Shown here: positions 54,357-57,289 of the stretch, piece after piece
Layout of the letters: each line of letters begins with the position of its first letter
How positions within the stretch are numbered: the first letter of the stretch is position 1
Source: an uncultured archaeon
GTDB taxonomy: Archaea; Asgardarchaeota; Thorarchaeia; Thorarchaeales; Thorarchaeaceae
Length of the DNA stretch: 64,000 nt
Reading direction: 5' to 3'
Assembly (NCBI GenBank): GCA_964610875.1
Contig: CAZSWP010000003.1
Span: forward strand, 48,113-112,112
The notes under the pieces: generated by a model
What the model saw: the letters and a program-made list of their open reading frames with translations, nothing else
Told to the model about the DNA's origin: nothing
Database searches by the model: none
Translations under genes and position numbers: made by a program

Positions 54357-55751
54357 ATGATGGTAAGAAATGAGATTGTGGAGGAACTAGACTCATTTTT
54401 CAATCCGAAAAGAGTTGCACTAGTAGGAGCCTCTGCTGACTATAGAAAACTGGGTAATTCAATATTGATGAATTTACTTGCATCAGAAATTGAAATTTAT
54501 CCTATTACTATCAGTCGTGACCGTGTTTTAGGCGTCAATGCATATCCAAATCTCCATGATTTACCACAGCCTGTTGATCTTGTTATCATTGCTGTGGCAG
54601 CAAAATATTGTACTGGACTCATGTCAGAAGTCCGAAAAGCTGGAGCAAGAAATGCTATAGTAATATCTGGTGGATTTAGTGAAACTGGGGAGGAGGGGAA
54701 GAAACTTGAGAAACAACTTGTAGATGCTGCTAAGGCTGAGGGTGTCAGGATAATTGGTCCTAATTGTGTAGGAGTTTCAAATAGTAGATTGTTCAATGGC
54801 ACATTTACTATGATGCCCGAGAGAGGAAATATTGCTCTTCTCTCTCAAAGTGGTGCATTAGGTGGAATGACCATATACACTACAAGAACAAAACGAATTG
54901 GGATGAGCAAATTTGTTAGCCTTGGGAATGCAGCTGATGTCAGTTTCACTGAAGTCCTTGAGTATTTCAGATATGACCAGAGAACGAACGTGATTGCAGT
55001 CTATGTTGAAGGTGTAGATGAGGGTCGTGATTTTTATGAAGCATTAAAGAGAGCCTCGAGCGAAAAACCTGTTGTAGTTCTCAAGGGGGGAAGAAGTGAG
55101 GCTGGGGCAAAAGCAACCATGAGTCATACAGGGTCTCTTGCAGGTTCTATCAAAGTCTTTGATGGAATGATACGCCAAGCAGGTTGCGTGACTGCTCCTA
55201 CATTTGATTCATTCTTTGAAGTTTGTAAATTATTTGATTATCAACCTTTACCGAAAGGTCGTAATATTGGTATTATTAGTAATACAGGGGGAGCTGGTGT
55301 TCTCGCTACTGATAAAGCGACCGACATGAACCTTGAAGTACCAGTTTTAAATCCTGAAACACGAAATGAATTAAGACAAGCCCTCTCTCCTATGGCATCA
55401 ATTGAAAACCCAATCGATGTTGTTGCTAGTGGTGGAAGAAGGGAATACCGTATTGCTACAGAGTTATTGTTGAAAGATTCCAATGTTGATATGTTGTTAG
55501 TCATATGTGGCGTTCCAACCTTTGCAGGGATGACCCAAACTGAACATGCTGCTGGTACACTTGAAGGGGTACGGATGGCTGAAACTAGTAAACCAGTAGT
55601 GGGTGTTTGGCTCGCTGGCAATGTTGGAAAACCTGGAAAAGATCTTCTGGAGATGAATCGCATTCCTTGTTATGATGATCCAGCATTAGGTATTCTCTGC
55701 ATGACTAAGATGGCTGAATATGCTGAAATGCACAGTCATATGAACTTGTAG
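54357..55751 (+). CDS. acdA: acetate/acyl-CoA ligase (ADP-forming) alpha subunit
   Basis: FFNPKRVALVGAS, IIGPNC, SQSGA, SHTGSLAG, NPIDV. Confidence 0.92.
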   Translation: MMVRNEIVEELDSFFNPKRVALVGASADYRKLGNSILMNLLASEIEIYPITISRDRVLGVNAYPNLHDLPQPVDLVIIAVAAKYCTGLMSEVRKAGARNAIVISGGFSETGEEGKKLEKQLVDAAKAEGVRIIGPNCVGVSNSRLFNGTFTMMPERGNIALLSQSGALGGMTIYTTRTKRIGMSKFVSLGNAADVSFTEVLEYFRYDQRTNVIAVYVEGVDEGRDFYEALKRASSEKPVVVLKGGRSEAGAKATMSHTGSLAGSIKVFDGMIRQAGCVTAPTFDSFFEVCKLFDYQPLPKGRNIGIISNTGGAGVLATDKATDMNLEVPVLNPETRNELRQALSPMASIENPIDVVASGGRREYRIATELLLKDSNVDMLLVICGVPTFAGMTQTEHAAGTLEGVRMAETSKPVVGVWLAGNVGKPGKDLLEMNRIPCYDDPALGILCMTKMAEYAEMHSHMNL

Positions 55752-55776
55752 TAATTGTATTATTTGTAATACACCA

Positions 55777-56082
55777 TTATTCAAGATACTTGTTTGCAAG
55801 TTCCGGAAACTCGTCTGTAACTGCATCCCTAAGCTTGCGCTCGACCCACATACTTAGATTGATTGCACGCTCATTTCTTACAGACTGAAGACAAGACCTA
55901 AGTTCAGTTGTAACACTGAATGACATTATTGGACTTCGTCTCTCACTGTTAGGAACAGCTGAGGGAGTTTCAGTCCTTCTAACCCGGGTCTGGCTGGTAG
56001 ATTCAGTTGTTGATGTTGTTTCGTCTTTGTCTTTTTCATCTCTACCTTGTTCATCTTTCCGGTACTTTCCTAAGAGACTCAT
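55777..56082 (-). CDS. ribbon-helix-helix-like DNA-binding protein with disordered N-terminal tail
   Basis: About 50-aa charged/ST-rich tail followed by IMSFSV-TTELRSCLQSVRNE-INLSMWVERKLRDAV (beta-alpha-alpha pattern). Confidence 0.65.
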   Translation of the reverse strand: MSLLGKYRKDEQGRDEKDKDETTSTTESTSQTRVRRTETPSAVPNSERRSPIMSFSVTTELRSCLQSVRNERAINLSMWVERKLRDAVTDEFPELANKYLE

Positions 56083-57056
56083 TATCTGACCTCCCTAAGT
56101 AACGTCGCATATGCATCGGAAACTAGTGATGCTATCTCTTCATTAACCTCAGGATTTCCATTGCTCCTGAAGTTTTCAGCAGCTACTTGTTGACAACCAC
56201 GAGCTAACATTCTGATATCGCGAGGATTGCCTTTTGCAGCTGAATTGATTATATCAATCGCCTTCTCATGGAATGGATAAAGATCAAAATCATTTAGATC
56301 GAATGTGTCAATCTCACCACGTGCATATGCCAACCGTCGTCCTATGAACTCCTTTGCCTTCATAGCATCAAATGCAGGCACATCAAGGGGTTCAGTTCTA
56401 TCAGCAATCTGTGGAAGATATGATAGCATAGCATTCCAATACATTGCAGTACCACTCATCACAAGAGTCACAATTGGTTCATCTAATGACTGTCCATGGC
56501 CTGCAATCATCTCTTCTGTAGGTAAATCTGCCAAGTAGCGTAATTTATGAAATGCTGCTTCCTGATTATCCGCAACATCTTCTATGAATAGTGCAGTACG
56601 ACTTTGTTCTTCCATATATCTCCGAAGACATTCTTGAGCCACTGCTTCGATAATCTGACTAGACTCCCAAGACCTCCGATATTTTACTCGTAATGAATCG
56701 GCAATAGCTGCCGACATTTGCTTCTCGTATAACCCAGTCATTCCAACATAACCAGTGACGAATTTGTTACCACGTCGATCTGCCAGTGTTGGCAGGTCTC
56801 TCAGGGCAAGTAACATCAATGTACTTTTTCCAGAACCAACAGGTCCACGAAGGAATACATGTCGCTCGTTTGTTATTATCAAATCTACAATAGAGTCAAG
56901 AAAGTCTGCATGCTCTATATAGAGCCGACTATCTGGCATCTTGAAACCACGAAATGGTGAGAATTTGGCCCTGATTTTATCCTCCCAAGCTTTTAGGGTT
57001 TCTTTTCGTGTATTGAAGTGACGTATTAGAGCACTCTCATGAATTGCAATTGTCAT
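56082..57056 (-). CDS. AAA+ ATPase (ExeA/AAA_22-like)
   Basis: SPF..MPD, GPVGSGKST, ALFIEDV, LVMSGT, IADR, GNPRDIRML. Its TAA overlaps the ATG of the RHH gene. Confidence 0.8.
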   Translation of the reverse strand: MTIAIHESALIRHFNTRKETLKAWEDKIRAKFSPFRGFKMPDSRLYIEHADFLDSIVDLIITNERHVFLRGPVGSGKSTLMLLALRDLPTLADRRGNKFVTGYVGMTGLYEKQMSAAIADSLRVKYRRSWESSQIIEAVAQECLRRYMEEQSRTALFIEDVADNQEAAFHKLRYLADLPTEEMIAGHGQSLDEPIVTLVMSGTAMYWNAMLSYLPQIADRTEPLDVPAFDAMKAKEFIGRRLAYARGEIDTFDLNDFDLYPFHEKAIDIINSAAKGNPRDIRMLARGCQQVAAENFRSNGNPEVNEEIASLVSDAYATLLREVR

Positions 57057-57289
57057 GGCTCGGCCTCGTATCACATGTAGTTATTGTAATACAATTTCAA
57101 TACACTGCCCATTCATAAAGGTTCCGTGCGTTCAAAATACTTTATTCAAACAGCGCCAATAAAAAGCAATGTTTCAATAACATGGTATTAACTGTAATAC
57201 ATTCCAATCACGAAAATCCGAACATGGCACAACCTTTTTCAACCAATTGCTTTCGTGATTCAGTAGTTGACGCAAGGAGTCACAAGAAA

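Follow-up and report, generated by a model that had tools for sequence, protein, structure and literature searches.

A conserved AAA+ ATPase and ribbon-helix-helix gene pair within a field of heptad arrays: a candidate centromere-like system in Thorarchaeota

The gene pair and its arrays

A pair of genes and a field of short DNA repeats are described here from a stretch of 64,000 nucleotides (hereafter the window) of contig CAZSWP010000003.1, assembly GCA_964610875.1, which derives from an uncultured archaeon placed in Thorarchaeota. The first gene (56082..57056, minus strand) encodes an AAA+ ATPase of 324 amino acids (aa), and the second (55777..56082, minus strand) a partner protein of 101 aa. 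The two are translationally coupled: the TAA that stops the ATPase gene overlaps, as TAATG, with the ATG that opens the 101-aa reading frame. The ATPase starts at the ATG at position 57056 (minus strand); every homologue begins with the residues MTIAI, and a GTG codon at 57074 was therefore ruled out as the start. An initial annotation, made from the sequence alone, had described this coupled unit and three arrays of 9-bp units close to it. The unit and all three arrays are indeed present in the sequence, but rather than being flanked by a few arrays, as had been thought, the operon is embedded in a field of about 30 that is unique in the genome.

The core motif of the arrays is a near-palindromic heptad, GTAWTAC, repeated in 9-bp phase, with TGTAWTACA as the 9-bp unit. 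Upstream of the ATPase gene, a three-unit array (57067..57093; TGTATTACA-ATAACTACA-TGTGATACG as read along the coding strand) stops 10 nt short of the ATG and is a candidate operator. A two-unit array (57185..57200) lies in the same divergent gap and overlaps the start of a small membrane-protein gene, while a further three-unit array (55748..55772) starts 5 nt past the stop codon of the partner gene, in its convergent gap with acd. The field to which these belong spans 30731..63660, is densest between 47.4 and 59.6 kb, and continues beyond the window to approximately 73 kb. The window contains 14 copies of TGTAWTACA where 0.78 would be expected, and none of 100 shuffles gave as many; the 3.75-Mb assembly as a whole holds 22 copies, 14 of them between 39.6 and 59.6 kb of the window. 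When a phased core is defined as an exact GTAWTAC with a neighbour of at most one mismatch at +/-9 bp, all 25 such cores of the source genome (G000) fall on this contig, between 30.7 and 73.1 kb in window coordinates. The arrays are therefore far beyond chance. An unbiased scan for phased palindromic heptads returned only GTAWTAC at period 9 in two such loci, together with one isolated unrelated pair. Beyond the field the heptad shows no more than a mild depletion, its frequency being about 20% below Markov expectation.

Chaining of the units gives about 30 arrays, of which 10 have three units, 13 have two and seven are single. They are found in divergent gaps, in convergent 3′ gaps, at the 3′ ends of genes and inside coding sequences, and about half are either inside genes or in convergent 3′ gaps. 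Intragenic arrays occur in iorA, iorB, hypF, a HEAT-repeat gene, acd and trm5, and the divergent promoter gaps that carry arrays are aladh|o106, hypF|o137 and AAA|tm128, the last being that upstream of the ATPase gene. The genes of the field are unrelated, ordinary housekeeping genes. An origin of the arrays in miniature inverted-repeat transposable elements or other mobile repeats was considered and rejected, as the units measure 9 bp, the sequences on either side of them are not related to one another and conserved genes contain many of the arrays.

The ATPase has a classical Walker A motif (GPVGSGKST), a Walker B motif (LFIEDV) and no winged-helix domain. Its fold is that of an AAA+ module followed by a lid, in which strand 2 and Walker B appear to be separated by an additional helix, and is nearest to those of Orc1/Cdc6, MuB, TnsC and the STAND ATPases, the match tying with MuB, TnsC and NB-ARC. 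Pfam gives AAA_16, AAA_22 and NB-ARC, all below threshold, and a profile search against PDB sequences returned P-loop matches only. The description of the protein as ExeA/AAA_22-like in the initial annotation, which is also its automatic name at JGI (ExeA / AAA_22), captures the nearest sequence-level neighbourhood and no more: AAA_22, at 24.2 bits, falls below its cut-off of 27, and the best NCBIfam match, the pepcterm/ExeA-like TIGR03015, reaches 23.6 of the 324.5 bits required. Neither Cdc6_lid nor Cdc6_C is matched in Pfam even at E<=1, the protein ending after the lid; the true Orc1/Cdc6 paralogue encoded in the window (22144..23415, minus strand) matches both. The deviant Walker A of ParA and MinD (KGGxxK[ST]) is absent, so that the initial description of an AAA+ ATPase distinct from ParA holds on motif, fold and Pfam matches alike. 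The protein is thus an AAA+ ATPase of the initiator/STAND/MuB-TnsC neighbourhood, several members of which assemble on double-stranded DNA. The residues that remain invariant down to 26% identity are those of Walker A (G74, G76, K77), D160 of Walker B, N164, the G-T of sensor 1, R220 and R279, the last two being invariant throughout the family.

The partner protein is built of three parts: an N-terminal peptide (MSLLGKYRKEE), a variable linker, and a conserved C-terminal domain of the form strand-helix-N-x-S-helix. This division is drawn from alignments, BLASTP, Pfam and a predicted model, in which helices span residues 57-72, 76-91 and 93-99 and the linker has a predicted local distance difference test score (pLDDT) below 50. 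The C-terminal domain (residues ~50-92; 55807..55935, minus strand) comprises a strand (PIMSFSV), helix 1, an N-x-S turn and helix 2, and displays the features of the ribbon-helix-helix (RHH) superfamily: strand-helix-helix order, an N-x-S/T motif where helix 2 begins, and a strand in which every other residue is polar. No RHH match was found in a Pfam scan of the protein itself and 15 homologues from Thorarchaeota, and a profile search against PDB sequences gave only a non-significant match to the RHH protein NikR (E=0.61). For that reason the assignment depends on more distant orthologues, from loci here termed Heimdall-type. BLASTP links the protein to one such orthologue with E=2e-12, and the score of that orthologue for Pfam RHH_1, 23.2 bits, exceeds the cut-off of 20.5; RHH_1 is the top match in all six Heimdall-type orthologues scanned, and in two of them exceeds the cut-off. 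The N-tail and C-terminal RHH domain noted initially are borne out by this route, and with the low-pLDDT linker the protein has, at the sequence level, the RHH domain and flexible N-terminal tail that are characteristic of type I partition.

The N-terminal peptide (MSLLGKYRKDEQ; codons at 56047..56082, minus strand) is a candidate hook for docking on the ATPase. Its residues S2, L4, K6, Y7, R8 and E11 are invariant in Thorarchaeota and kept in the Heimdall-type orthologues, and in the six-frame translation of the source genome the peptide occurs once, in the RHH protein. It has a counterpart at locus L037, where a 41%-identical ATPase (L037:683-1579) has as its downstream neighbour a gene for a KaiC-family ATPase (L037:1576-2472, plus strand; Pfam KaiC, E=2.5e-58). 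The 77-residue N-terminal extension of the latter carries three tandem copies of S-V-L-S-K-Y-[RK]-K, while the RHH-like 69-aa gene upstream of the ATPase (L037:477-686) is without the peptide. Another partner protein begins MGSSLMAKYKA, in which SLMAKYK is similar to the start of the peptide. From these sequences, the peptide appears to be a portable module.

Conservation of the pair, the arrays and their neighbourhood

The ATPase family is very narrow, with 18 representatives at E<=1e-3 among 1.84 billion. Its gene was detected in 17 of the 18 same-family genomes searched, in single copy, and the protein is 75-87% identical across Thorarchaeota (mean column identity of the alignment, 82%). 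Together with the invariant motifs, this very high conservation fits an active housekeeping ATPase. Different genera share the synteny of the surrounding stretch, which runs for approximately 27 kb between glmS and ftsJ, and the field is conserved along with it. Among species-level loci of at least 15 kb that contain the ATPase gene, 54 of 55 have three or more phased heptads within 10 kb, with a mean of 16.3 heptads as against 2.8 for a control word. All 24 double heptads of genome G008 lie within 40 kb around the ATPase gene, as do all eight of G004 within 17 kb; on the closed chromosome CP070658.1, eight of nine are found between 1,795,715 and 1,807,397, with the ATPase gene at 1,796,954. 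In all, the arrays are genome-unique in eight genomes, and the co-occurrence of pair and arrays across lineages, a point that the initial annotation had put forward for checking, is borne out.

Individual sites are conserved as well. The three-unit upstream array (GTAWTAC / ACTAC / GWTAC) is kept in five of the six same-family genera that were compared, even where G+C reaches 52-53%. In these five, besides the source, it stands directly after a TATA-like box, between the box and the ATPase start, and ends 17-29 nt before the start, compared with 10 nt in the source genome; G008 and G011 have arrays in the same region in a different arrangement. The conserved array and TATA-like box suggest autoregulation of the operon. 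The AAA|tm128 gap and the convergent gap between the RHH gene and acd each hold a heptad in all seven same-family genomes compared. Within coding sequences, arrays recur at hypF residues ~168 and ~528 and at the iorB N-terminus, and the site in acd (55261-55285, residue ~308), which encodes the S-N-T of a conserved IISNTGG, is kept at the nucleotide level in all seven genomes, high-G+C genomes included. This recurrence suggests selection on the DNA word within coding sequence.

A form of the ATPase with 44% identity is found in nine metagenome-assembled genomes, most of them labelled Heimdallarchaeota. In the six Heimdall-type loci examined the gene order is fixed: a heptad, the ATPase gene, a spacer array, the RHH gene, a block of arrays, an o191-like gene and a convergent hypF. 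The first heptad lies approximately 20 nt upstream of the ATPase start, and the block consists of some 1.1 kb of very AT-rich non-coding DNA after the RHH gene, in which there are five or six arrays, the longest described having about 11 units. In Heimdall-labelled genomes of 3.6-4.1 Mb, the double heptads are concentrated in a stretch of about 3 kb (11 of 11 in G032, 10 of 10 in G033 and 11 of 12 in G034). The same heptad and phase thus persist where the ATPase is 44% and the RHH protein 31% identical, and where the heptad is kept the polar strand residues S54 and S/T56 of the RHH protein are kept also. In every lineage examined the arrays bracket the ATPase-RHH operon. Where a Heimdall-type locus reaches far enough, an Orc1/Cdc6 gene lies about 10 kb upstream of the pair.

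A still more distant ATPase, of 32% identity, is encoded at locus L038, 2.6 kb from the genes for Orc1/Cdc6 and the small subunit of PolD. The order there is orc1-o217-o106-x-ATPase-RHH-like (160 aa)-o191-hypF. By comparison with these relatives, the field of Thorarchaeota would seem to have arisen by expansion of a compact locus that adjoined orc1 in an ancestor.

Of the genes surrounding the pair, hypF, o191 and the Orc1/Cdc6 paralogue are linked to it across the deep lineages. The third conserved gene of the neighbourhood, o191 (52028..52603, plus strand), is homologous to the gene after the Heimdall-type array region (E=1e-11) and to that after the RHH-like gene of L038 (E=2e-17). It has a weak helix-turn-helix (HTH) signature resembling sigma-70 region 4, with a weak Pfam match to DUF134 and an Atlas lead to Sigma70_r4; its language-model look-alikes, which serve as a lead only, include clusters labelled Bathyarchaeota, in which the pair was not found. 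Homologues of o106 (45771-46091) and o217 (42337-42990) occur in the compact locus L038, and all three genes may belong to the system.

The Orc1/Cdc6 paralogue of the window, which has a winged helix, lies 33 kb from the pair. Its linkage is kept in G004, in the sister-family genome G019, on the closed chromosome and, as described above, in the Heimdall-type loci and L038. On CP070658.1 the field occupies 1.794-1.807 Mb, and Orc1/Cdc6 genes are found at 0.783 and 1.833 Mb. A search around the window's Orc1/Cdc6 gene, at 21.5-24 kb, found no repeats resembling origin recognition boxes (ORBs). GC and AT skew, calculated on the window's contig and on a 50% sample of the closed chromosome, was flat and tracked gene strand (r=0.69), and the origin was not placed by it. 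As the skew is uninformative, it is gene linkage alone that would put the field near an origin. The initial proposal of an origin-proximal system for segregation or organisation is retained in part: the non-ParA AAA+ ATPase, the tailed RHH protein, the co-occurrence of pair and arrays and the linkage to Orc1/Cdc6 (at 33, 10 and 2.6 kb) agree with it, and the flat skew of the closed relative lends its origin vicinity no support.

Several further features of the neighbourhood were observed. The Orc1/Cdc6 paralogue belongs to a cluster of replication genes (18861-23415) with TruA and the small (18861-19820) and large (19827-21047) subunits of replication factor C (RFC); contig C16 carries the other Orc1/Cdc6 gene of the source genome. 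Genes that lie between orc1 and the field include those for a 1242-aa HerA/DUF87-like protein (33230-36958) and, at 27822-30570, for a 343-aa protein and a T2SSE-type ATPase, a couple also found between orc1 and the ATPase-RHH genes in the Heimdall-type locus L035. The small membrane protein tm128 (57182-57568, plus strand; 128 aa), divergent from the ATPase, is the one whose gene start overlaps the two-unit array; Thorarchaeota and G019 (E=6e-7 to L034:606-1007) retain it beside the pair, and Heimdall-type loci do not. The next gene, for subunit D of an A/V-type ATPase (57652-58290, plus strand), has no other subunit genes beside it in the window and keeps its placement in most relatives.

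Competing interpretations of the locus

The genes and their conservation, the RHH fold by homology, the integrity of the ATPase motifs, the genome-unique character of the arrays and their occurrence alongside the pair are matters of observation; from them may be inferred, conditionally, what binds the arrays, whether the peptide contacts the ATPase, and what the system does in the cell. The interpretation tentatively preferred here, with a confidence that falls a little short of even, is that the pair and the field constitute a chromosomal, centromere-like nucleoprotein system of Thorarchaeota and one group of Heimdall-labelled Asgard archaea, in which the RHH protein on the arrays tethers or regulates the ATPase. 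In operators of the MetJ, omega and CopG type, it is a 7-bp palindrome with 9-bp phasing that tandem RHH dimers recognise. By this model, RHH dimers would bind side by side on the GTAWTAC heptads spaced 9 bp apart, coating some 30 arrays confined to a single chromosomal region; the array that immediately precedes the ATPase start codon would probably also serve to repress the operon. The N-terminal peptide (MSLLGKYRK), on its flexible linker, would then dock on the AAA+ ATPase and control it. Peptides in such a layout are found in the tails of ParG, omega and ParB and in the terminal hooks that bind MuB and TnsC. Should the ATPase, whose fold is like that of DNA-bound Orc1/Cdc6, MuB and TnsC, assemble on DNA in an ATP-dependent manner, its assembly would thereby be tied to this one locus, and the likely output would be positioning, segregation or compaction of the chromosome region near the Orc1/Cdc6 gene.

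Several properties of the locus point in this direction. Pair and arrays occur together in nearly all loci, heptad and phase persist, along with the polar strand residues, into divergent Heimdall-type relatives, the RHH assignment is backed by the orthologues of those relatives, the peptide is seemingly portable, and the ATPase motifs are invariant. The intragenic and 3′ sites and the Heimdall-type block of approximately 1 kb resemble parS or plasmid centromeres more than promoters, and such sites, together with a compact non-coding block, argue against a simple regulon. The restriction of the arrays to one locus per genome near Orc1/Cdc6 argues in turn for a centromere-like or origin-region role.

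A number of points weigh on the other side. Binding of the heptads by the RHH protein is a prediction from sequence, and o191, as a co-conserved HTH protein, could be an alternative binder of the arrays. The putative motor is of no class known to segregate DNA. The compact Heimdall-type arrangement would fit an iteron-type replication origin equally well, and conserved synteny and protein motifs, such as the S-N-T of acd, could account in part for sites having kept their positions. At L038, the repeats upstream of the ATPase gene are GRTATC units and not GTAWTAC, and hhalign did not detect homology between the small-protein family and the 160-aa partner. Finally, the sister-family genome G019 (2.2 Mb, 96% complete; L033/L034, L113), whose ATPase is 64% and RHH protein 36% identical, has no phased heptad near the pair and a single one elsewhere, on another contig. 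It retains an upstream two-unit site, GTATTAC and GGAATAC, 11 bp apart. The unbiased scan for phased palindromic heptads found nothing comparable to the GTAWTAC field in either L038 or G019. As G019 keeps the pair with no field nearby, either the field is not obligatory or the motif has drifted there. The initial annotation had named relatives with the pair and no arrays as evidence against its proposal; G019 goes some way towards this in lacking the field, although not the two-unit site, and arrays accompany the pair in 54 of the 55 loci, G019 being the exception.

The best-surviving alternative, though itself improbable, is that the locus is a replication origin or initiation zone, in which the arrays act as iterons and the RHH protein brings in an Orc-like AAA+ protein devoid of a winged helix as initiator, helicase loader or regulator of firing. 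An ATPase with no DNA-binding domain of its own and a partner that supplies one would be well suited to this, as would the very AT-rich non-coding stretch of about 1 kb that the arrays fill beside the Heimdall-type ATPase gene. The Orc1/Cdc6 linkage is deep and was once tight, being at its closest in L038, next to the PolD small subunit, and RFC genes are present in the window. Yet the arrays of Thorarchaeota extend over 20-40 kb, many of them intragenic, which is unlike any known archaeal origin, and the fold of the ATPase matches MuB, TnsC and NB-ARC just as well, with no Cdc6 lid or winged-helix signature. In L038 a better candidate of the ORB type is offered by a repeat set nearer orc1, AACRTGTTAACA, in three copies in the larger gap, while the GC skew of the closed chromosome gives no origin signal either way. 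The 528-bp A-rich gap between the Orc1/Cdc6 and PolD small-subunit genes and the ATPase gene of that locus contains three AAC(A/G)TGTTAACA copies (L038:8296-8546); these are candidates for origin repeats of the ORB kind and differ from the GRTATC units that immediately precede the ATPase gene.

A further reading is purely local control of transcription, with the RHH protein repressing its own operon and its neighbours, the ATPase serving as co-regulator and the field amounting to a linked regulon. The three-unit array between TATA-like box and ATPase start in five genera besides the source is just what this would predict; several arrays occupy the divergent promoter gaps listed above, and G019 has kept its one upstream two-unit site and no field near the pair. 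It is nonetheless considered quite unlikely, given that about half of the arrays are intragenic or in convergent 3′ gaps and that Heimdall-type loci gather six or more arrays in one non-coding stretch instead of placing them beside several promoters. The neighbours are unrelated housekeeping genes, and it would be unusual for a regulon to be limited, genome after genome, to one contiguous locus.

There is slightly less to be said for the arrays being bound by another protein of the neighbourhood, most plausibly o191, with the ATPase-RHH pair merely co-located. This would accommodate the presence of o191 homologues beside the pair in all three deep lineages and their sigma-region-4-like HTH signature, but a 7-bp palindrome every 9 bp fits the twofold RHH ribbon, as known from MetJ, omega and CopG, better than a monomeric region-4 HTH. 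The arrays bracket the ATPase-RHH operon precisely in every genome, and the o191 look-alikes of Bathyarchaeota-labelled clusters, for what this lead is worth, occur where the pair was not found.

That the pair is the remnant of a mobile element or defence module, or a domesticated one such as a MuB/TnsC-like target selector, is scarcely credible: the fold is similar to that of MuB and TnsC, and terminal hook peptides are how TnsB and MuA engage those ATPases, but the annotated regions of the 64-kb window hold no transposase, integrase, mobile-element or defence gene near the pair, PADLOC found no defence-family match for the ATPase or o191 and one marginal ZorC match for the RHH protein (E=0.004, 13.9 bits), and the ATPase gene is single-copy, 75-87% identical and in conserved housekeeping synteny across the class.

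Relation to known systems and significance

The centromere-like reading invites comparison with the type Ib partition systems ParF-ParG/parH of TP228 and delta-omega of pSM19035. In these too, an NTPase gene is followed by that of a small RHH protein with a flexible N-terminal tail, and arrays of short repeats, which in type Ib systems act as both centromere and operator, omega binding contiguous 7-bp heptads, have their likeness in layout here. The present system differs in having an AAA+ ATPase with a classical Walker A motif, a chromosomal locus and a genome-unique field of 3-40 kb, and no sequence homology was detectable between the small protein and ParG or omega. Its putative motor, by fold and Walker A (GPVGSGKST), excludes it from type I, ParA-type partition. 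ParABS systems with parS clustered near oriC likewise have a palindromic site present many times in one region, also within genes, next to the genes of the system; here there is neither a ParB (HTH/CTPase) nor a ParA, and tandem 9-bp-phased heptads take the place of single 16-bp parS palindromes.

Orc1/Cdc6 proteins and their ORBs share with the pair the AAA+ module, the lid, apparently the helix inserted after strand 2, and the linkage to a true Orc1/Cdc6 gene. The ATPase is not an Orc1/Cdc6 initiator, however, as its 324 residues end after the lid with neither Cdc6_lid nor Cdc6_C; there is no winged helix, the predicted RHH reader is a separate protein, and the repeats are unlike ORBs or mini-ORBs. 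In MuB-MuA and TnsC-TnsB, a sequence-specific DNA-binding partner uses a peptide at its terminus to remodel an AAA+ protein that has assembled on DNA. Here, assembly of the ATPase on DNA is putative, transposase and transposon ends are lacking, and the genes are single-copy housekeeping genes in synteny; membership of the MuB/TnsC/TniB transposition ATPases was rejected on the latter ground and on the absence of a transposase from the annotated regions of the window.

A further comparison is with SegAB of Sulfolobales, whose RHH protein SegB binds segS next to segAB and also distal sites (PMC12139799). Both are archaeal chromosomal operons with an RHH protein, here the predicted binder, disordered tails, and repeats next to the operon as well as at further sites. 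The layout likeness to ParF-ParG/parH, delta-omega and SegAB pointed out in the initial annotation is therefore sound, the ParA-type motor excepted. By analogy, the logic shared by ParG-ParF, omega-delta, ParB-ParA, SegB-SegA, MuA-MuB and TnsB-TnsC, that of a site-specific binder with a terminal peptide on a linker and a DNA-associated NTPase, is that of the arrangement proposed here. A search of full-text literature found no description of this ATPase-RHH-array system, which is not mentioned in the SegAB preprint (PMC12139799) or in a survey of the Asgard replisome (PMC12680538).

A bolder form of the centromere-like reading, which must be regarded as unlikely although of some weight, is that the locus encodes a segregation or positioning machine of a new class in Asgard archaea, those of Thorarchaeia and a Heimdall-type group, in which an Orc/MuB/TnsC-like AAA+ protein would assemble on DNA and be patterned by the hook peptide of a centromere-binding RHH protein that coats the array field beside the ancestral Orc1/Cdc6 locus, and hence an AAA+ counterpart of ParABS and SegAB. 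If the ATPase is a motor, it would add a new class of NTPase to the ParA, actin-like and tubulin-like partition machines, and would link initiator-type AAA+ proteins to chromosome handling. If instead the arrays mark an origin, they would point to a split initiator, consisting of an AAA+ protein and a separate RHH reader, with a dispersed initiation zone. The ATPase is almost invariant in sequence and its family is without a characterised member, and the locus provides an easily testable handle: a DNA motif at one place per genome, a small predicted binder and a highly conserved ATPase. Either outcome would be of interest for the biology of archaea and of eukaryogenesis.

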